Below, one piece after another: positions 1 through 21,177 of a DNA stretch of 38,954 nucleotides. Made by a program: the position numbers and the translations under genes. Source of the DNA: an archaeon (GTDB lineage: Archaea; Undinarchaeota; Undinarchaeia; Undinarchaeales; JALTGF01); contig JALTGF010000019.1 of NCBI GenBank assembly GCA_027077325.1, positions 1-38,954 on the forward strand. The letters are read 5' to 3'. The stretch's first letter is position 1. The number at the start of each line of letters is the position of its first letter. The notes under the pieces are model-generated. The model was given only the letters and a program-made list of their open reading frames with translations. It searched no databases and had not been told where the DNA came from.

Positions 1-311
1 CTAGAGGTTTCAGAAAATTTTGAAATAAATTCCTCTTTTGAGATTTCAATTGGCTCAATTTCAGAATCCAACAGTTTTAGGATTTTATCATATGTACAAT
101 TTTTCTGCGTTTCTTTTGTTAGTTTAAGGATTTTCTTTGAGAGATTAACTGCCTTTTCTTCATTTTCTAGATTAAGACCTTCTTCAACACCACCCCACAT
201 AGAAGATCCCCTAAATTTATTAATCTTTTGAAAAAGTTTGTCAACCTCATTTACATTTGATAATTTTTCAAAAAGGTCTGGGATTTTATTTGAAGTATAT
301 TTTAAGATCAT
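1..311 (-). CDS. hypothetical protein (C-terminus cut by the window edge)
   Basis: Minus-strand frame is open from the ATG at 311-309 (MILKYTSNKIPDLFEKLSNVNEVDKLFQKINKF...) to position 1. It is absent from the ORF track because it has no stop in the window. K/E-rich composition matches neighbouring genes. No family recognised. Confidence 0.4.
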   Translation of the reverse strand, partial: MILKYTSNKIPDLFEKLSNVNEVDKLFQKINKFRGSSMWGGVEEGLNLENEEKAVNLSKKILKLTKETQKNCTYDKILKLLDSEIEPIEISKEEFISKFSETS

Positions 312-347: not shown

Positions 348-464
348 TGCCCCCGATGGGAATTTCAGCAAGCAGAGCGCTGATCGCGCACTCGTGCTCT
401 GCATTTGAACCCATGTCTTCGCCGTGAGAGGGCGAAATGATTGACCGGACTACACCACAGGGGC
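348..464 (-). tRNA. tRNA-Glu(CUC) interrupted by a 42-nt T-loop intron
   Basis: Minus strand: acceptor GCCCCTG/CGGGGGC (one G-U) plus discriminator A. D-arm GGTGTAGTCCGGTCAATCAT is the archaeal tRNA-Glu signature. Anticodon stem TCGCC/GGCGA, loop CTCTCAC (anticodon CTC). T-stem ATGGG/CCCAT closes only after the insert is removed from TTCAAA^...^T. ORF-track ORF 286..486 lies on top and is not coding. Confidence 0.85.
362..403 (-). other. tRNA intron, T-loop position 59/60, BHB-flanked
   Basis: T-loop TTCA pairs with intronic TGAA (4-bp helix). It is flanked by the 3-nt bulges AAT and ATT, with the T-stem on one side and an intronic GC helix on the other. Internal hairpin GCAGAGC...GCTCTGC. 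The boundary could shift by 1 nt without changing the mature sequence. Confidence 0.7.
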
Positions 465-684
465 AGCTGATGTCAGCTGGCACCATATACTGCGTTCCGC
501 TTGCCTTTAAGTTCTCCCGCGGAAGCAGTATTATTTTCTGCTTTTATTTTCGCCAACATTGAAATCTGATTTTCCTTCCCCATGCTTTCTTTTCTAAAGA
601 AAAGCTGTCTGTTTCTATTTGTGCCAACTTAGGATATTATCTACAAGTAGCAACTAATAAACTTTTCTTTTTTTGTAAAAGCGA

Positions 685-2728: not shown

Positions 2729-5461
2729 CTATGACTTGAATGGCAAAGATAATACGTATTTACACCTAAGAGCAGCCCGCTTTAGATATTTTACACGACC
2801 AAACCCTTTTTCAGGATAAAGTGTGTTATAATATGCATGAATCCGGACCAAAGCATCTTGCAGTTTTGGATCAACGGTTACTGCATCCCACTCGAAATCA
2901 GCCTCTGCCCATTTGTCAAGAACTTTTACGAAGTTAAGGACTACATTGACATTGTGAGACAAGATTTCATCCTTACTTAAATCCTTGAGTTCTTCTTTAC
3001 GATCAACGGAAACATCCACTGACCATCTACGTCTTAATTTTTGAAGTTTTCTGAGTAAACTTATCGAGTTAGCTCCAAAAGTAAATTGGTCTGGAACCCA
3101 ATGTCTCCCTATTGAGAGGTACTTTGAGACAGAATCCAAGAGTACAATAATGACATCAATTATTTGTTGCGTCTTCTTTTGTAAATCCCAATAGGATTCA
3201 ATAGCATGCTGAACATTTCCATCAAATACCTTATCTAAGACTTCTTTAAGGTTATTTTTTACGAACAGATCACGGGTTATTTCATTAAAAGTGGCATCGG
3301 GAGGGATTCCAAGTTCAATACCAAATAACTGCAATAGCTCTAATTTTGCACTTTTCAAGCTTTTCTCCTGGCTCCAGAACAAAAGATTTCGTTTCTTTAT
3401 TGATGCCTTTACTACATCATTGTACCACTCTTTTGAGACTTCAAGAAAATTATCTACTGACTGAGAGAAGTATTTCACATTTTCCCCATATTGAATAGTT
3501 GCCTTAAATGTTTCAACAATCCCCAGACTGTGTAAACGATTGAGGACAACACGCCCCTGGGGGGAAAGATACCCGCCGCCCCGACTAGATGGAGCAATTA
3601 TCCCAGTTTTTCTTGCAATTTCAAACTTTCCAAGACCATGAGGCTCCTTAGCAAGAGCCAATATAATTTTCTCAGCAAAGGTCAATTCATTCTCTGATTC
3701 TTTTTTATTTACAAACGAAATTCTAGGGTATCCCCATGCCCTTAATGAAGGAAGGTAAACATCATAGTAAAATGAGCGCCCTTTACTTGTTACATAAAAA
3801 CCACGTTCTTTAACTACTAGCCCAGATTCCAAAATCCACTTATCTAGTCTGTACCTTTGCCAAGAATCTTTTTTATTTGCTAATTTCCAAGGGGTCCGAT
3901 TATTCGAAAGCAAAAACAAAAGATAAGCAATTTCATTTTTAGTAACAACATCAGATTGCTTAGTGAGGAAATACTTTTCAAAAAACGTGTCTAGGTCAAC
4001 TTTTAAGGCCTTTAACACCTTTTGAAGGGATTTCCAGATTTTGATTCCTTCTTGAGTAGCATATAATAATTTTAGAGATGAAATGTTTTTATCAATTTTT
4101 TTAGTGATGATTCCAGCATTTTCAAGCCGATGAACGCTAGTTAATAGTTGAGGCAACGCCTTCCCAAAATCAGTCATAAGCTCATTTGTGTACAATGGCT
4201 TTCCATTATTCTGTGCAATCACTACCTTATTTAGAACCCACAACAGATTTCTACAGCCAGAGCCCAAGTTTTCATTGGATGATTCAAAAAAATTATGTGA
4301 CTTTAATTGAGATATAAAATCAAGATAAAGGGTGATTATCTTTGGCTTTTTGTGTAAAAGATTGAGCAATGCCATTCGGCTCATAGTTCCCTGCAAGCCC
4401 TTTTGATTAATCTTTTTTAAAAGAGCATAATATTTTTTCCCTTTCTCTTGAGTTACATATGTTGTTTTAAGATGCTCGACAAATCCTATATGCTGAAATT
4501 TTCTAATTGCAAGTTCATGAACAGGGACGCTGTAATTTTTACACCACCCCCAAAGTTGTGGATGGTCTTTATCAAGTATCTTCTTTAAAGAAAAAACGTA
4601 TTCTTTCGTAAGTTTTTTTGAGCTAATTGGCCAATACTCCATTAGCAGCCTTAAGGTGCACATATCACCCGGTGAAATACGTTTCATAGTATTAGGGAGG
4701 TCTTTTGAGAGTTGCCCAAGGTAATAGTCAGGCTCTCGGTATTTGATAGAGTATGACCCATGCTCAGATTTGACAAGTAAGCTCCCTTTTTTAGAAAGCT
4801 GATAGTATTTTAAAACTTTAGGATTTATGTTTGGTGGCTCATAATTTTGGATGATGCCCCCATCCTTTAATGTTTCTAGCAGGGTAAACTTCCGTTTATT
4901 AATGCTATACATTGGTTTAACAAGAACTAGTTGTGGGAATAACTTCGTAAAATCTTCAAAAGGAAAAGGGTTTAATTCATGTTTCTTAAAATTATCTGAG
5001 ATTCGCTCCATAAACCCCAAGCGAGTGTGGCCGATCCCAAGATAAAAAAAGAGAGTTTCCCCATGAAGGCCTATAACATATCCGTTTATGCCTTGCCTCC
5101 AATTATCTATAAGATTATTCTGGAGGGGCAGCATTACTTTTTCTACAAAATGCTTTCCAAACCGGGTAAGCTCATAAGTTGTAGGGGGATATTTTTTTAC
5201 AAGCTTGTAGTCAGTTAAAGGAGCATACACTCTGTACAATGCAAGTGATTCAAGTGGCCTTGTATTAGTGATTGTACCTTTTTTATAGAGTTGCATTAAG
5301 AAATCCCATCGTTCATAAGATGCCAAAACAGAGTACAACATTATCTGGGCTTCTCTAAGAGTCCGTATTTCACTTAAAGGTTTAAATTCAAACGCCATTA
5401 GAATGGATTCCCTATAATTAATTAACCCATTAGATACACATATACATAAGATAAATGCCAT
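2729..5461 (-). CDS. large (about 890-910 aa) protein of tandem winged-helix-like modules, unknown function
   Basis: Long uninterrupted ORF. A recurring wing-like motif Y-x-[LVT]-[TS]-x-x-G occurs at about aa 96, 220, 335, 467 and 556. There is a clear MarR/TrmB-like wHTH at about aa 596-650 (EKIILALAKEPHGLGKFEIARKTG...VVLNRLHSLGIVE). No Walker A motif. Alternative ATG at 5398 (MAFEFKPL...) is equally possible. Confidence 0.7.
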   Translation of the reverse strand: MAFILCICVSNGLINYRESILMAFEFKPLSEIRTLREAQIMLYSVLASYERWDFLMQLYKKGTITNTRPLESLALYRVYAPLTDYKLVKKYPPTTYELTRFGKHFVEKVMLPLQNNLIDNWRQGINGYVIGLHGETLFFYLGIGHTRLGFMERISDNFKKHELNPFPFEDFTKLFPQLVLVKPMYSINKRKFTLLETLKDGGIIQNYEPPNINPKVLKYYQLSKKGSLLVKSEHGSYSIKYREPDYYLGQLSKDLPNTMKRISPGDMCTLRLLMEYWPISSKKLTKEYVFSLKKILDKDHPQLWGWCKNYSVPVHELAIRKFQHIGFVEHLKTTYVTQEKGKKYYALLKKINQKGLQGTMSRMALLNLLHKKPKIITLYLDFISQLKSHNFFESSNENLGSGCRNLLWVLNKVVIAQNNGKPLYTNELMTDFGKALPQLLTSVHRLENAGIITKKIDKNISSLKLLYATQEGIKIWKSLQKVLKALKVDLDTFFEKYFLTKQSDVVTKNEIAYLLFLLSNNRTPWKLANKKDSWQRYRLDKWILESGLVVKERGFYVTSKGRSFYYDVYLPSLRAWGYPRISFVNKKESENELTFAEKIILALAKEPHGLGKFEIARKTGIIAPSSRGGGYLSPQGRVVLNRLHSLGIVETFKATIQYGENVKYFSQSVDNFLEVSKEWYNDVVKASIKKRNLLFWSQEKSLKSAKLELLQLFGIELGIPPDATFNEITRDLFVKNNLKEVLDKVFDGNVQHAIESYWDLQKKTQQIIDVIIVLLDSVSKYLSIGRHWVPDQFTFGANSISLLRKLQKLRRRWSVDVSVDRKEELKDLSKDEILSHNVNVVLNFVKVLDKWAEADFEWDAVTVDPKLQDALVRIHAYYNTLYPEKGFGRVKYLKRAALRCKYVLSLPFKS

Positions 5462-5707: not shown

Positions 5708-6835
5708 ATGGAGTTTACAATAGGAAATGCCATAAATGACCAAATTCCGGCAGAGGTTGTTGAAAGGCAAGAAAATAAAGTTGGCCGGGCAAGGATAGTT
5801 GTTATTGGAGCAGGTGGCGCTGGCAATAATTCAATAACTAGGCTAATGAATATGGGAGGCGTAAAAGGGGCTAAATCCGTTATTGTCAATACAGATATGC
5901 AACATCTTGAAATTTCAAAAGCAGATTCAAAAATATTAATTGGATACAACATAACTGAAGGACTTGGCGCGGGGGGGTTTCCAGAAGTTGGAAAACAAGC
6001 AGCAGAGTCTAGCAGAAAAGAGCTAAGAGAAGTCCTTAAAGGGGCACACCTAGTATTTTTAACATGTGGTCTTGGCGGCGGCACGGGAACTGGTTCACTC
6101 CCAGTAATTGCAGAAATTGCAAAAAAAGAAAAAGCAATTGTTGTTGCAACCGTTACAACACCATTTGATCTTGAAAAGGCAAGATTGGCAAAAGCAGAAG
6201 AAGGCTTGCTTGAACTAAAACAAAATGCAGACACTGTTATTGTAATAGACAACAACAAACTCGTAGATTACTATCCTAATCTTCCATTAAACCAAGCATT
6301 TGCGATGGCTGATGAATTGATTGCTAGCATGATTAAGGGGATTACTGAAACAATAACAGTTCCAAGTTTGATGAACCTTGATTTTGCAGATGTTAAAACA
6401 ATTATGACACAAGGCGGCGTTGCAATGATTGGCGTTGGCGAAAGTGACACTCAAAACAAGGTGCATGAAGCCGTTGAAAATGCGTTAAAGCACCCACTTT
6501 TAGATGTTGACTATCGGGGCGCAAACGGTGCACTAATTCATATAACCGGTGGACCAGAAATGACACTTGCACAGGTAACTGAAGCAGGAGAAATAATCTC
6601 AAATTCAATGAGCCCAGATGCACAGATAATTTGGGGCGCAAGAGTAGACCCGGATATGGGTGGAAAGATTAGGGTGATGACCATAGTAACTGGGGTTCAT
6701 AGCCCAAACATAATTGGAAAAAACAACGGCCTTGGGATAAAAATGATTAAAGCACAAAGCCCAAAGCAAATGGCCAGGGGTCTAGGAGGTGGAAAACCAC
6801 AAGCGCTAAGGGAACTTTCCATAGATTACCTGTAA
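5708..6835 (+). CDS. ftsZ: cell division GTPase FtsZ
   Basis: 375 aa. GAGGAGNN loop and tubulin signature GLGGGTGTGSLPVIAEIAKK. GGGAGGT Shine-Dalgarno sequence 7 nt upstream of the ATG. Confidence 0.95.
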   Translation: MEFTIGNAINDQIPAEVVERQENKVGRARIVVIGAGGAGNNSITRLMNMGGVKGAKSVIVNTDMQHLEISKADSKILIGYNITEGLGAGGFPEVGKQAAESSRKELREVLKGAHLVFLTCGLGGGTGTGSLPVIAEIAKKEKAIVVATVTTPFDLEKARLAKAEEGLLELKQNADTVIVIDNNKLVDYYPNLPLNQAFAMADELIASMIKGITETITVPSLMNLDFADVKTIMTQGGVAMIGVGESDTQNKVHEAVENALKHPLLDVDYRGANGALIHITGGPEMTLAQVTEAGEIISNSMSPDAQIIWGARVDPDMGGKIRVMTIVTGVHSPNIIGKNNGLGIKMIKAQSPKQMARGLGGGKPQALRELSIDYL

Positions 6836-6881
6836 CGCTTATTTCTCAAAAGGGAGTTCAGCCATATTACCACCCAAACGA

Positions 6882-6925
6882 CCGGGCCCAATCCCTCAGG
6901 GCCCGGCCCTCCCCTTTTAATTTTT
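6882..6925 (+). terminator. G+C-rich hairpin plus T-tract downstream of ftsZ
   Basis: CCGGGCCC (6882-6889) pairs perfectly with GGGCCCGG (6899-6906) over a 9-nt loop, followed by CCCTCCCCTTTTAATTTTT. It sits between the convergent ftsZ and the 6975..7577 gene, so it could act in both directions. Confidence 0.45.
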
Positions 6926-6974
6926 AAAAAAGATTTCAGAGATTAGAACAAAAATAAAAAAATTAAATTTAGGA

Positions 6975-7577
6975 TTATAAAGAGAGATTAATAGAGTGAA
7001 GCGCGGCGTTTTTAATTTTGTTCCACCACTGCTTGTGTATTTCTAAGACATTTTTATCGATGTGCTTTACAAATGCCGATTGTATGTCTTTTATTACAGA
7101 TGGCCCTATGTCAAAAAGATAACTTTCAATAGCTTGAAGAATTCTAGCATCGTAAAGATCTTGACGTCCATCAACTAATATAAATGGATAAAATATTTCA
7201 GGCTCAAGAGTGGGCAGTTCATTAGCAATGCCAAGCTCTTTTGGAGTTCTTCCCTGAACACTAATCTCAATTGGGGTATTACAGTTTTTAACTCGCTCGC
7301 CAGTAAATCCAGCACATAACTCATCAGGAAGGCCATCAACAATATCTTTAACAAATGATTCGTATTTCCTCAATGGTTTATCTCCTTTAATTCCAATCCA
7401 GACATCTATGTCTCCGGAATGCTTTGAAGGACGATTTACAGAACTCCCGACAATAATTGCATATGCAAACTCATCGCCAAGTTTTTCTTTAATACTTAAA
7501 ACAATTTTTTTAATCCTTGAAATTTCTAAAAATAACTTAGGGAACAACCCACTTTTTTTGGCAGTTTTTAGATCCAT
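6975..7577 (-). CDS. Pol-beta-superfamily nucleotidyltransferase domain protein
   Basis: 200 aa. Minimal NTase motif G-S-x(10)-D-I-D in IIVGSSVNRPSKHSGDIDVWIGI, with a helical C-terminal half. Substrate unknown. Confidence 0.55.
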   Translation of the reverse strand: MDLKTAKKSGLFPKLFLEISRIKKIVLSIKEKLGDEFAYAIIVGSSVNRPSKHSGDIDVWIGIKGDKPLRKYESFVKDIVDGLPDELCAGFTGERVKNCNTPIEISVQGRTPKELGIANELPTLEPEIFYPFILVDGRQDLYDARILQAIESYLFDIGPSVIKDIQSAFVKHIDKNVLEIHKQWWNKIKNAALHSINLSL

Positions 7578-8203: not shown

Positions 8204-9880
8204 ATGAAATATTCAGAAATAGTAAAACTTTACTCGGCCTTAGAAGCCACAACAAAGAAACTTGAAAAACGAGATATTCTAAGCAACTTTTTAAAAGAGG
8301 TTCCAGTGGATTTATTGCCAACTGTTGTCATTCTTTCAATGGGTCGAGTTTTTCCTGCATGGAAAGAAACAGAACTTGGGATTGCTGAGAATATTATGAT
8401 TAAGACAATTTCAAAAATTACTGGGATCTCTGAAACCAAGGTAAAAGAACAAGTTAGAAAAGCTGGGGATATGGGGATTGCAGTTAAAAATTTATTGGGG
8501 AAAAAATCACAAACCACATTGTTTAAAAAAGAATTAACCGTTGAGAAGGTATTTAAAAATTTAAATAAGATTCCAACCGTTGCTGGTTCTGGTTCTATCG
8601 ACAAAAAGATTGCACTTCTTTCAGAACTCTTAACTTCTGCAACTCCGGAGGAAGGAAAATACATAACGAGAACTGTTTTAGAGGAACTTAGAATTGGTGT
8701 TGGAGAAGGCATTGTTAGAGATGCAATTGCAAAAGCATTTAACGTGCCGCCAGATGTTGTAGAAACTGCGTACAGCGTTAGGAACGACTTTGGGGAAATT
8801 GCTCAAATTGCAAAAGAGAAAGGAGTTGAAGGGCTTAAAAAACTTGACCTAAAACTTGGAAGACCAATAAAGCCAATGCTTGCCCAGAAAGTCCAAACAA
8901 TAGAGGAAGGTCTTAAAGATATGGGAGGAATTGCTGCCTTTGAATATAAATACGATGGCATGCGCGCGCAAATTCATTTTGACCATGGCAAGGTTACGGT
9001 TTTCACTCGCCGGCTGGACAATGTGACAAAACAATTCCCAGAGATTGTAGAGTATGCAAAAGAGTGCATAGATGCAGAAAACTGTATAATTGAAGGAGAA
9101 GCAGTTGGCATTGACCCAAAAACAGGAAGGCCACAGCCATTCCAGCGACTTTCCCAAAGGATAAAGAGAAAGTATGGGATTAAGGAGATGATGAAAGAGA
9201 TACCTGTAGAGGTGAATCTTTTTGATATTATGTACTTGAACAATGAAAACTATGTTAAGAAACCATTTGAGGAAAGAAGAAAAACACTTGAAAGGATAAT
9301 TAAGGTGATTCCCAGAAAATTCCAGTTGGCTGTGCAGATAGTCAGTTCTGACCCAAAAGAAGTTTCTAAGTTTTACAAGAAATCGCTTTCCCTTGGACAC
9401 GAGGGCATAATGATAAAAAATTTAAAGAGCCCATACACGCCCGGCTCAAGAGTTAAACACATGTACAAGTTAAAGCCAGAAAAAGAAACTCTGGACTTAG
9501 TTATAATTGGGGCCATCTGGGGGGAAGGTCGCCGCTCCAAATGGCTTGGAAGCTTTATACTTGGCGCTCGCGATTCAGATACAAACCAGTTTGTTGAGGT
9601 TGGAAAGGTTGCAACTGGTCTCACAGACAAGAATCTAGAGGATTTGACAAACACATTAAAGCCACTGATAGTTGAAGAGCATATAAAAGAAGTAAAGTTA
9701 AAACCAGAACTCGTAGTCGAAGTTGGCTATGAAGAGATTCAAAAAAGCCCAACATACGAGAGTGGATTTGCGCTTAGATTTCCAAGAGTTCGGAGGATTA
9801 GAGACGATAAAGGACCTGAAGATGCAGATGATCTTGAGCGCATATCTATTTTATATGAAGCACAGAAAGGGAAGAAATAG
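8204..9880 (+). CDS. lig: ATP-dependent DNA ligase
   Basis: 558 aa. Adenylation motif I FEYKYDGMRAQIH. Also EGEAV, GHEGIMIK, LKPE...LDLVIIGA, and the OB-fold tail LRFPRVRRIRDDK. Confidence 0.95.
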   Translation: MKYSEIVKLYSALEATTKKLEKRDILSNFLKEVPVDLLPTVVILSMGRVFPAWKETELGIAENIMIKTISKITGISETKVKEQVRKAGDMGIAVKNLLGKKSQTTLFKKELTVEKVFKNLNKIPTVAGSGSIDKKIALLSELLTSATPEEGKYITRTVLEELRIGVGEGIVRDAIAKAFNVPPDVVETAYSVRNDFGEIAQIAKEKGVEGLKKLDLKLGRPIKPMLAQKVQTIEEGLKDMGGIAAFEYKYDGMRAQIHFDHGKVTVFTRRLDNVTKQFPEIVEYAKECIDAENCIIEGEAVGIDPKTGRPQPFQRLSQRIKRKYGIKEMMKEIPVEVNLFDIMYLNNENYVKKPFEERRKTLERIIKVIPRKFQLAVQIVSSDPKEVSKFYKKSLSLGHEGIMIKNLKSPYTPGSRVKHMYKLKPEKETLDLVIIGAIWGEGRRSKWLGSFILGARDSDTNQFVEVGKVATGLTDKNLEDLTNTLKPLIVEEHIKEVKLKPELVVEVGYEEIQKSPTYESGFALRFPRVRRIRDDKGPEDADDLERISILYEAQKGKK

Positions 9881-9970: not shown

Positions 9971-10753
9971 ATGGGTAAGAAGGATATACTGAGCAATGAA
10001 GTTTTAGATTTGCTGGGGAGACTTGACTTAAATCAGTATGAGTCAAAGGTATATATGTCTTTACTTATTTCAGGGACTGCAACTGCAGGAGAGATTTCAG
10101 AGATTGCAAACGTTCCAAGATCGAGAGTTTATGATGTTTTAAATAGCTTAGAGAAGAAAGGTTTTGCAGTTGTTCAAGTGGGAAGGCCAGTCAAATATGT
10201 GGCAGTGCCGATTGAGAACTCTATAAAGCAACTCAAGATAAGATATGAGGATGAGTTTAACAAAAAACTTCAAAGCGTTGACAGTCTTGAGAAAAATCTT
10301 AGGTCAGTTTTTAATACATTTTCGAAAAACCAAGATTTCATAGAAAATGAAGCAATTCGTGTTATAAAAGGAAAGAGCAATTTATATGCACACATGAATA
10401 AATTAATTGAGAATTCAAACAACAAAATTTTAAAGATGACAAATTCATATGGTCTTTTAAACCTTGACAAACACTGCGGCAAGACTATTGAAAAGGCAAA
10501 GAAGCGCGGTGTTGAAACCAGAATTATAGCAAACATTAGCGAAAAACCAAAATTGAGAGTTCTTCACAAAGTTGCAAGTTTGAAAAAAGGGAATTTTGGA
10601 AATGGACGATTTATGATTTCAGACGGAAAGCATGCGATTATGTTAACAAGCCCGGATGATTCTGGGATATGGATCCACAGCCCATACCTTGCATCTTCAC
10701 TAGAGACATTATTTGAAACTGCATGGAATAAAAGCAAGCCAATTGAATTTTAA
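9971..10753 (+). CDS. TrmB-family transcriptional regulator
   Basis: 260 aa. N-terminal wHTH LNQYESKVYMSLLISGTATAGEISEIANVPRSRVYDVLNSLEKKGF, plus a C-terminal effector-type domain of about 150 aa. Confidence 0.8.
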   Translation: MGKKDILSNEVLDLLGRLDLNQYESKVYMSLLISGTATAGEISEIANVPRSRVYDVLNSLEKKGFAVVQVGRPVKYVAVPIENSIKQLKIRYEDEFNKKLQSVDSLEKNLRSVFNTFSKNQDFIENEAIRVIKGKSNLYAHMNKLIENSNNKILKMTNSYGLLNLDKHCGKTIEKAKKRGVETRIIANISEKPKLRVLHKVASLKKGNFGNGRFMISDGKHAIMLTSPDDSGIWIHSPYLASSLETLFETAWNKSKPIEF

Positions 10754-10758
10754 TTTTT

Positions 10759-11673
10759 TTAAGAATTTAGAGGTGGCAAGCTGGTAGAACCCTTTAATTC
10801 TTGCCCAAGACCAATCCCAAGAGAATAAAAAGCGCCGTCCATAGTTTTTCCGAGAATATTGCTGAGGAGATTTCCTTTCTCTTCAGTGAGAGTTACGGTT
10901 TTTCTTTTCTTTAACCCAGAAAGATTTTGAGCAAGGGCAATTGCATCATCTTCTGTTCCGAGTTGATCAACCAAACCATAATTGAGGGCATCTTTTCCCA
11001 GACAAGGTCGACCATCTGCAATTTTTTCAACGGCTTCCTTTGAGAGCCCACGATTTTGTGCAACCTCTGTAACAAATTGGTCTTGAACTTGATTAATCAT
11101 ATTTTGCAGGATTTGTTGCTCATTTTTAGTAAGCGGCCTGTAAGGGCTTCCAATATCTTTATAAGGCCCAGATTTAATTGCAGTGTAATTTAGTCCGACT
11201 TTGTTTAAGAAAACGCTCCAATCGCCAACGAGGGTGTACGCACCAATATTGCAGGTTAGTGAAAGAGGGTGGGCAACAACCTTATCAGCACTCGACGCGA
11301 TCCAATAAGCTCCAGAAGTGCCCATATCACCAATCCAAGCAACAGTAGTTTTATTAATTGACTTTACTTTTGCGGCAATTTCATCACTTGCAACCGCAGA
11401 ACCGCCAGGAGAATTTATTTCCAAGACAATTGCCTTAATAGAAGGGTCATTTTCTGCCTTGTCAAGGAGCCCAATTATGGAACTCGGCTGGACCTGGGAT
11501 GTTGGGATGATAGTATCTTGGGAACTTATTGTCCCAGAAATCCGGATAATTGCTATTTTATTAGAGATAATTTGTTGTGGATAAGACAAACTAACACCTA
11601 CAACAATAATAACAAATACAAGCAATGCAGCAAGTATTACATACAATGTTTTTTTAGGTTTTGACTTTGCCAT
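10759..11673 (-). CDS. sppA: signal peptide peptidase SppA (S49 family, short form)
   Basis: IKAIVLEINSPGGS and GDMGTSGAYWIASSADKVVAHP motifs, with an N-terminal TM anchor. ATG at 11673 (MAKSKPKK) is preferred over the TTG at 11694 used by the ORF track. Confidence 0.85.
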   Translation of the reverse strand: MAKSKPKKTLYVILAALLVFVIIVVGVSLSYPQQIISNKIAIIRISGTISSQDTIIPTSQVQPSSIIGLLDKAENDPSIKAIVLEINSPGGSAVASDEIAAKVKSINKTTVAWIGDMGTSGAYWIASSADKVVAHPLSLTCNIGAYTLVGDWSVFLNKVGLNYTAIKSGPYKDIGSPYRPLTKNEQQILQNMINQVQDQFVTEVAQNRGLSKEAVEKIADGRPCLGKDALNYGLVDQLGTEDDAIALAQNLSGLKKRKTVTLTEEKGNLLSNILGKTMDGAFYSLGIGLGQELKGSTSLPPLNS

Positions 11674-19606: not shown

Positions 19607-19788
19607 TGCGGGGGGCAGGATTTTCAGCCGCTACCGCGAATTTTAGTGGGGCTTCTGCCGAAGGCAGAACGCAAAGCTTTCAACAAGCCCCACGCTTACG
19701 CCCGCAGCAGCGGGCATTTGAACCTGCGAACCCACTAAGGGACAAGGCCCTAAACCTTGCGCCTTTGACCAGGCTTGGCAACCCCCGC
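19607..19788 (-). tRNA. tRNA-Leu(UAG) interrupted by a 96-nt T-loop intron
   Basis: Acceptor GCGGGGG/CCCCCGC plus A. Anticodon stem CAAGG/CCTTG, loop TTTAGGG. Long class-II variable arm TCCCTTAGTGGGTT. T-stem GCAGG/CCTGC closes only after 19621..19716 is removed. The 5' half matches archaeal tRNA-Leu (GCGGGGGTTGCC.AGCCTGGTCAAAGGCG). Confidence 0.85.
19621..19716 (-). other. tRNA intron, T-loop 59/60, 96 nt, highly structured
   Basis: BHB: TTCA/TGAA central helix with AAT and AAT bulges. Closing helix GCC(C)GCTGCTGC/GCGGTAGCGGC. Inner hairpin GTGGGGCTT...AAGCCCCAC extended by TCTGCC-TTC-GGCAGA. Confidence 0.7.
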
Positions 19789-19792
19789 AATA

Positions 19793-19907
19793 TGCCCCAG
19801 CCGGGATGTTCAGCCATGCTGAACGCACGAAGCGACAGCAACAGCATTTGAACCCGGGTCTCCGCCTCGAAAGGGCGGAATGATTGACCGGACTACACTA
19901 CCGGGGC
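19793..19907 (-). tRNA. tRNA-Glu(UUC) interrupted by a 40-nt T-loop intron
   Basis: Acceptor GCCCCGG/CTGGGGC (one G-U) plus A. Anticodon stem CCGCC/GGCGG, loop CTTTCGA. T-stem CCGGG/CCCGG closes only after 19807..19846 is removed. Lies 4 nt upstream of tRNA-Leu. Confidence 0.85.
19807..19846 (-). other. tRNA intron, T-loop 59/60, 40 nt
   Basis: BHB: TTCA/TGAA helix with AAT and CAT bulges. The intron also contains a competing hairpin GTTCAGC-ATG-GCTGAAC. Confidence 0.7.
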
Positions 19908-21079: not shown

Positions 21080-21177
21080 TGGGCCCGTCGAGATTTGAAC
21101 TCGAGACCTTACGCTTTCTCAGGCGTTGAAACGCCGCCATATAAGGCGTACGCTCCACCAAGCTAAGCTACGGGCCC
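21080..21177 (-). tRNA. tRNA-Ile(UAU) with canonical 24-nt intron at 37/38
   Basis: GGGCCCG-TA-GCTT...GAGC-G-TACGC-CTTATA^[intron]^A-GCGTA-AGGTC-TCGAG-TTCAAAT-CTCGA-CGGGCCC-A. Short variable arm, and GGGCCCGTAGCT.AG is the archaeal Ile-type 5' end. Perfect hBHBh': CTTA/TGAG central helix, bulges TAT and AAA, outer helix GGCG/CGCC. Confidence 0.85.
21116..21139 (-). other. canonical tRNA intron (37/38)
   Basis: TGGCGGCGTTTCAACGCCTGAGAA. The BHB geometry fixes both splice sites. Confidence 0.8.

Follow-up and report, generated by a model that had tools for sequence, protein, structure and literature searches.

The tRNA-Glu(CUC) gene at 348-464 of the stretch of DNA analysed here (the window, 38,954 nucleotides, which is contig C19 in an assembly, labelled G000, of 769 kb and 186 contigs that is approximately 76% complete) is of the archaeal type, lies on the minus strand and is interrupted within its T-loop by an intron of 42 nt that falls between tRNA positions 59 and 60. 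The sequence-only reading had described such an intron at this locus, and both its coordinates and its motif string proved exact when the sequence was read directly. We consider it highly probable that this intron is a lineage-specific gain that would be removed by predicted bulge-helix-bulge (BHB) splicing, with an alpha4-type EndA endonuclease and the RtcB ligase as the enzymes, and that its junctions are set by the T-arm, by base pairing and by the strict motif. From the anatomy of the gene and the enzymes encoded alongside it, we infer that the intron is spliced in the cell.

In reverse complement, the 5' exon reads GCCCCTG TG GTGT AGTCCGGTCAA TCAT T TCGCC CTCTCAC GGCGA AGAC ATGGG TTCAAA, and the junctions read ATGGG-TTCA-AA^T-GCAG...TTGC-TGAA-AT^T-CCCAT, followed by CGGGGGC and A (Table 1). 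Together, these form a perfect 3-4-3 BHB (hBHBh') in which every pair is standard: the T-stem ATGGG/CCCAT is the outer helix, TTCA/TGAA the central helix, AAT and ATT the two bulges, and GCAG/TTGC the inner helix, which closes a G+C-rich hairpin (57% GC versus a genome average of 37.5%). A cut after the second bulge nucleotide on each side joins ...GGGUUCAAA to UCCCAUCGGGGGCA and restores the T-loop TTCAAAT, and excision of the intron in silico gives a canonical cloverleaf with its four stems and conserved nucleotides intact. The mature tRNA is 75 nt long with CCA not encoded (the 76 nt given by ARAGORN count one flanking base). Inspection by eye found no C box in this intron or in that of tRNA-Leu(UAG), and exact-word scans of metagenome contigs matched no environmental variants of the locus.

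Table 1 Features of the window, T-loop introns elsewhere in the genome and mini-elements. Positions without a contig name are those of the window; C52, C12 and the like are other contigs, of the same assembly (G000) unless the row names the sister-genus genome G001.
Feature	Location	Strand	Details
tRNA-Glu(CUC) gene	348..464	-	117 nt including intron; tRNA-Glu(ctc) by in-silico splicing and ARAGORN
Glu(CUC) 5' exon	404..464	-	tRNA positions 1-59
Glu(CUC) anticodon CTC	428-426	-	anticodon loop CTCTCAC
Glu(CUC) T-stem 5' strand ATGGG	414-410	-	pairs with CCCAT
Glu(CUC) T-loop TTCA	409-406	-	5' strand of BHB central helix
Glu(CUC) intron	362..403	-	42 nt, positions 59/60
Glu(CUC) intron TGAA	367-364	-	3' strand of central helix
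Glu(CUC) 3' exon	348..361	-	starts with T60
Glu(CUC) T-stem 3' strand CCCAT	360-356	-	
Glu(CUC) acceptor 3' strand CGGGGGC	355-349	-	partner of GCCCCTG
Glu(CUC) discriminator A	348	-	
Hairpin GGTGCCAGCTGACATCAGCT	465..484	-	adjoins 5' end of tRNA-Glu(CUC); copy of mini-element terminal hairpin
tRNA-Leu(UAG)	19607..19788	-	96-nt intron at 59/60, 19621-19716
tRNA-Glu(UUC)	19793..19907	-	40-nt intron at 59/60, 19807-19846
tRNA-Ile(UAU)	21080..21177	-	canonical 37/38 intron, strict BHB, 24 nt, 21116-21139
Phe(GAA) T-loop intron	C52:4226-4266		41 nt; central helix TTCA/TGGA
Ser-type class II tRNA T-loop intron	C12:2913-2932		20 nt; strict motif
Ser(UGA) T-loop intron	C52		42 nt; one U.U mismatch in central helix
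Pro(UGG) T-loop intron	C181		30 nt; 58/59 register only; GTTC/GAAC helix, 5-nt 3' bulge
Mini-elements, G000	C182:~120-345, C52:~6830-7100, C181:~10915-11000, C104:~3300-3420, C113:~10040-10110		
Mini-elements, G001	C6:~8800-9040, C16:~200-300		

Unspliced, the gene reaches 20.9 bits in Rfam against a threshold of 29, by way of a false acceptor pairing, and ARAGORN misses it outright. A decayed tRNA pseudogene that carries a chance insertion could score in this way, yet we regard that reading as scarcely credible and close to refuted, given that the stems and conserved nucleotides are intact once the intron is removed, that the BHB is perfect, that six further genes of the same build exist in the genome and that this is the sole gene for the Glu(CUC) isoacceptor in the assembly (approximately 76% complete). 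Comparison with an order-level relative (G008) also speaks against decay. The tRNA-Glu(CUC) gene of that genome has no intron and shares 89% identity with the 5' exon, and at pairs 6:67 (U.G/G-C), 7:66 (G-C/A-U) and 50:64 (U-A/G-C) both sides have changed, the 3' partners lying beyond the intron; compensatory changes across the intron indicate selection on the spliced product. The remaining tRNA genes of the window fare little better with the same tools: tRNA-Ile is the sole report of Rfam, whereas ARAGORN truncates its calls of Glu(UUC) and Leu(UAG) and mistakes tRNA-Ile(UAU) for His(atg). Genome-wide, approximately one quarter of the tRNA genes are unseen by Rfam or mis-called by ARAGORN, and inferences about codon usage or 'missing tRNAs' in such small archaeal genomes will be wrong unless prediction is BHB-aware.

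The split arrangement of tRNA-Glu(CUC) is not a product of chance. When 34,375 strict-BHB candidates from the whole genome were spliced in silico and passed to ARAGORN, 16 yielded a tRNA, all of them at real tRNA loci. The window holds four tRNA genes, three of which are split in the T-loop (tRNA-Ile(UAU) being the only one that is not), as the sequence-only reading had stated, and the intron lengths of 42, 40 and 96 nt and the shared junction GGTTCAAATGC...GCTGAANNTCC that it gave are likewise exact. The literal pattern that it proposed for a genome-wide scan matches these three loci only, and structure-aware scans add four T-loop introns; the literal pattern therefore under-counts, and structure-aware scans are needed. 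By our curated count, T-loop introns interrupt 7 of the approximately 30 detectable tRNA genes (three of them in the window, the other four elsewhere in the assembly) and anticodon-loop introns approximately 10 of the same approximately 30, so that some 17 of 30 are disrupted overall. The strict motif is present in five of the seven T-loop introns, and those of Ser(UGA) and Pro(UGG) are relaxed. A further scan, for split T-arms with an acceptor match, returned 20,679 matches, mostly due to chance, and was dropped.

Several other tRNA genes of this genome are unusual in their own right. A class II tRNA gene on the minus strand at ~C12:2899-3007 has an acceptor stem and T-arm identical to those of tRNA-Ser(GCU) in the sister-genus genome G001 and a discriminator G, but its anticodon loop, CUGAUGA, yields the isoleucine anticodon GAU; it also holds the 20-nt 59/60 intron. 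A tRNA that mis-decodes, a decoy, a pseudogene and a fault of the assembly are all conceivable readings. Two tRNA-Thr(UGU) genes (C40:1124-1323 and C52:34183-34382) carry 126-nt canonical introns that are identical at 125 of 126 positions, with unrelated downstream flanks and one copy at a contig end. The canonical intron of tRNA-Gly(GCC) on C182 is also 126 nt long and is unrelated to them in sequence. There are, moreover, two distinct tRNA-Phe(GAA) genes, one without an intron on the 1.8-kb contig C8 (591-666) and one with the T-loop intron (C52:4212-4326); the small contig may represent contamination or a strain variant.

Genes for both splicing enzymes are present. A single EndA gene on contig C3 encodes 177 amino acids (PF01974 at 109.7 bits) with the catalytic triad Y113/H123/K154 intact, and aligns over its full length with the alpha4 enzyme of Methanocaldococcus jannaschii, PDB 1A79 (130 bits). 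The alignment is gapless from the catalytic Tyr to the catalytic His, and in the N-terminal part, the region of L1 and L2, no indel exceeds one residue (loop positions L1/CSL, L2/ASL and L3/NEQ-type were taken from PMC3488258 and PMC5829648). As there is no gap between the catalytic Tyr and His, the L3 loop is absent. Judged by its sequence, the enzyme is of the loop-less M. jannaschii alpha4 type, without L1, L2 or L3, for which a tetramer and the corresponding substrate range are predicted. Searches with tblastn found no second EndA subunit or paralogue in G000 (approximately 76% complete) or in the 858-kb genome G001; one weak match on C132 (E = 0.22) was rejected as a repetitive membrane-type protein. 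Across the phylum, EndA is single-copy and approximately 175-200 amino acids long in 14 of 17 genomes, with no match in the other three. The RtcB ligase gene is split over two contig ends (PF01139 at 301 and 229 bits). Approximately 60 nt downstream of the EndA gene, at C3:626-676, lies a 17-residue copy of the C-terminal end of the protein (94% identical), a 3'-end duplication that resembles those found at tRNA genes (see below).

Alpha4 endonucleases need a strict 3-4-3 BHB (PMC3239211, PMC5829648). The mechanism that we propose is as follows. In the precursor, the T-stem ATGGG/CCCAT would serve as the outer helix, U54-A57 of the T-loop would pair with UGAA near the 3' end of the intron to form a 4-bp central helix, AAU and AUU would form the two 3-nt bulges, and GCAG/UUGC would begin the inner helix. 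A single alpha4-type endonuclease would then cut after the second nucleotide of each bulge, and RtcB would join the exons to give the T-loop UUCAAAU. A loop-less alpha4 enzyme should tolerate the strict 3-4-3 motif only, and we infer such strict specificity for this EndA from its likeness to the known type. Selection by the host endonuclease, which had been offered earlier as one explanation for the recurring arrangement, gains some support from the sole EndA being a loop-less alpha4 type; the relaxed motifs of Ser(UGA) and Pro(UGG), which a truly strict alpha4 enzyme might fail to cut, cast some doubt on such strictness.

That the junctions look alike is mostly a consequence of where the introns lie. 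On the exon side, GGTTCAAAT and TCC are the consensus T-arm (the genome has 11 occurrences of intact GGTTC[AG]A[AT]TCC), and pairing with TTCA requires TGAA, so that the near-invariance noted earlier, exact though its strings are, is for the most part forced by the T-arm consensus and the pairing rule. We scanned all GTDB species genomes for GGTTCAAATGC-N(12-42)-GCTGAANNTCC and obtained 91 stretches; among the 80 of these that were listed and analysed, 45 of 50 archaeal stretches were spliced into valid tRNAs (at least 25 identities), compared with 0 of 30 bacterial ones. The valid instances come from Micrarchaeota, Woesearchaeota, Aenigmatarchaeota, Nanoarchaeota, Asgard groups, Thermoproteota and Nitrososphaerales, and the module is thus general to archaeal 59/60 introns. 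One element of the junction is left unexplained by the BHB rule, that is, the G-C/C-G clamp with which the inner helix starts in five of the six strict T-loop introns that G000 and G001 contain versus 1 of the 15 canonical 37/38 introns of the two (Fisher p ~0.002). When 251 archaeal genomes were searched with a pattern that did not prescribe the clamp, 18 candidates from 11 families had an inner helix paired throughout; the GC..GC start was the commonest (10 of 18), other pairs were used in 7 of the 11 families, and the clamp clustered by lineage.

The distribution among relatives places the introns late. In G001, which belongs to a sister genus of the same family and whose whole genome was fetched, ARAGORN directly finds 40 tRNAs, among which Glu(UUC), Leu(UAG), Pro(UGG), Ser(UGA) and Ser(GCU) are uninterrupted. 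The Glu(CUC) gene of G001 is interrupted in its anticodon loop, by an intron of 187 nt. The one 59/60 intron of G001 lies in tRNA-Asp(GUC) and has the same module (CTGGA-TTCA-AAT-GCG..CGC-TGAA-AAT-TCCAG); tRNA-Asp is uninterrupted in G000. The tRNA-Glu genes of G002 and of the order-level genomes have intact T-loops, and one order-level genome (G004) has a 21-nt 59/60 mini-intron. As the seven T-loop introns described here are absent from the sister-genus orthologues, they are labile, lineage-specific gains, and the comparison with related genomes that the sequence-only reading had called for thus comes down on the side of gain within the lineage, the orthologues in G001, G002 and the order-level genomes being without them. 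With seven T-loop introns in this genome and one in that of the sister genus, the pair offers a recent and tractable case of archaeal tRNA intron gain. Unusually long anticodon-loop introns of 117-187 nt occur in several tRNAs of G001, including Glu(CUC) (C18:7470-7732, C2:108815-109070 and C1:107968-108204).

Such a recent origin raises the question of whether the T-loop introns are copies of one young lineage that spread by insertion, in which case common ancestry would also explain the junction, in a manner compatible with the splicing model. The clamp is what one would expect of such copies, given that it is not obligatory among archaeal families and follows lineage, and the absence of the introns from the sister-genus orthologues fits as well, as do their clustered lengths (four are 40-42 nt long). 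The introns of Glu(UUC) and Phe(GAA) are, in addition, identical at 28 of 41 aligned positions (68%) and share the same predicted hairpin with one pair changed on both sides. For their interiors, 37 of 20,000 shuffles reach the observed score (p ~0.002 uncorrected), which becomes ~0.04 after correction for 21 pairs; the other 20 of the 21 interior pairs among the seven T-loop introns, including all those with Glu(CUC), show no significant similarity. G-C-rich closing pairs could also simply be favoured beside a weak UUCA/UGAA helix. A further hint comes from an unrelated small archaeal genome (G154), in which three near-identical 59/60 introns of ~40 nt (C14:814-870, C36:2953-3009 and C36:3726-3782) constitute a clear intron family at the T-loop site. 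We know of no mechanism for intron transposition of this kind, which we count against the idea. The intron family proposed in the sequence-only reading therefore keeps the clamp, one similar pair, the clustered lengths and the absence from the sister genus in its favour and has the lack of significant similarity in 20 of the 21 interior pairs against it, and we hold it as a tentative possibility that we would not ourselves favour.

As a footprint of integrating elements, we took a near-exact copy (17 nt, at most two mismatches) of a tRNA 3' end. In G000, 4 of 30 tRNA genes have such a copy at a distance of 59-260 nt downstream, as do 8 of 40 in G001, and none was found upstream in either genome. 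The repeats begin in the T-loop at approximately positions 57-60 and reach up to 18-26 nt into the flank, and tRNA 3' ends are thus targeted for integration in this lineage. The 59/60 intron site falls at the left edge of the att-like repeats, and these repeats bracket conserved mini-elements that end in the hairpin GCTGRCCACAGC. These mini-elements, of ~75-100 nt, lie between the tRNA gene and a second T-loop-to-3'-end copy, with repeats of up to 36-43 nt, and matched no family in Rfam. A second element family (CTGGAGGTGTCGGAACCGG...) is common to Phe(GAA) of G000 and to Arg(UCU) and Ser(CGA) of G001. The hairpin that adjoins the 5' end of tRNA-Glu(CUC), of the form GGTGCCAGCTGAC..CAGCTG, is identical at 18 of 20 positions to the element copies of G001, a score reached by 0 of 2,000 shuffles. 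An identical variant of it occurs at C3:46662 of G001, and a TATA-like GTATATGG is located just upstream of it in the window.

According to the integration-avoidance idea (Randau and Soll 2008, as relayed in PMC4090602), which the sequence-only reading had extended to the present locus, the introns would be kept since they disrupt the T-arm that integrating elements aim at and so protect the tRNA genes. It is in keeping with this idea that tRNA 3' ends are indeed targets here, in the downstream orientation alone, that the repeats begin at the very site of the introns and that Glu, Leu and Asp tRNA genes serve fuselloviruses as attachment sites (PMC4090602). Footprints or a mini-element are, however, associated with three of the seven genes that bear a T-loop intron (Phe, Ser(UGA) and Pro(UGG)) versus two of the approximately 23 others, and their presence at intron-bearing genes argues against a protective role. 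The Phe repeat, moreover, takes in the last five nucleotides of the intron, which means that the insertion entered a gene that already had its intron, and the intron leaves the repeated core, exon 2 with its flank, in one piece. We thus think protection improbable as the reason for which the introns persist.

Alternatively, the 59/60 introns could be scars of the mini-elements, in which the T-loop-to-3'-end segment was duplicated, the first copy decayed and a remnant that folds into a BHB was kept. The shared left edge of repeat and intron, the enrichment of footprints at intron-bearing genes and the element hairpin that abuts the Glu(CUC) gene would all be accommodated by this scenario, but that hairpin is 5' of the gene and outside its intron, the introns have no sequence similarity to the elements, and among 44 T-loop-intron genes of other archaea only three have an exon-2 copy downstream, two of which are neighbouring tRNA genes. 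We consider an origin as scars very unlikely. Also unlikely, though a little less so, is a combined scenario in which the 59/60 introns form a young and still-spreading family whose insertion site is set by the T-loop-to-3'-end attachment segment of the mini-elements. Were it true, the gain of introns and the integration of elements would both result from a single recombination process at tRNA T-loops, and a plain alpha4 endonuclease would let only strict-BHB survivors persist.

BHB introns at 59/60, a listed non-canonical site of tRNA introns (PMC4090602), have already been described in Thermoproteales and in ARMAN-2, and the new twist of the present case is a modest one: many 59/60 introns occur together with an endonuclease of the loop-less alpha4 type. 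ARMAN-2 (Candidatus Micrarchaeum acidiphilum) has 59/60 introns in tRNA-Cys(GCA) and tRNA-Pro(GGG) (Fujishima et al. 2011, PMC3239211). It resembles the present archaeon in its small DPANN-type genome, in the 59/60 position (with a strict hBHBh' motif in Pro(GGG)), in the disruption of over half of its tRNA genes (56% versus ~17 of 30 here) and in the canonical intron of tRNA-Ile(UAU) (25 nt versus 24 here) (PMC3239211). It differs in that its endonuclease is a three-unit epsilon2 enzyme with a specificity loop and many of its introns are relaxed (PMC3239211), whereas here a plain 177-amino-acid enzyme of predicted alpha4 type without L1, L2 or L3 accompanies T-loop introns of which five of seven are strict. 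In Thermoproteales, non-canonical introns including those at 59/60 are known, and transposition has been proposed (Sugahara 2008 and Fujishima 2010, as summarized in PMC4090602); the position, the BHB logic and the rapid lineage-specific increase described there are shared with the present case, as may be the occurrence of similar introns at the same site of unrelated tRNAs (Fujishima 2010). The Thermoproteales enzymes belong, by contrast, to the (alpha-beta)2 class, with a Crenarchaea-specific loop, and the members of their intron families, as far as the same summary describes them, plainly resemble one another in sequence; here, detectable similarity is confined to one pair. In a distant archaeon, a tRNA-Glu (L014, G028:C1:~329700-329824) has an insert in its T-stem/T-loop at a different site (GGGTGATAAACTATAAGTTTATCCGGGATTTCAAATCCCGG).

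As for the enzyme, the EndA of this genome, known from its gene, shares with M. jannaschii EndA 1A79 its length, the Tyr/His/Lys triad and the lack of an insert between Tyr and His. Kaneta et al. 2018 linked an L3 loop to those DPANN alpha4 enzymes that cope with disrupted tRNAs (PMC5829648), and the present enzyme is unlike these in being without one. If its predicted specificity holds, many introns at non-canonical positions can pile up under a sole loop-less alpha4 endonuclease as long as the motif stays strict, and the reported link of tRNA gene disruption to broad-specificity enzymes would be refined by this loop-less alpha4 case.
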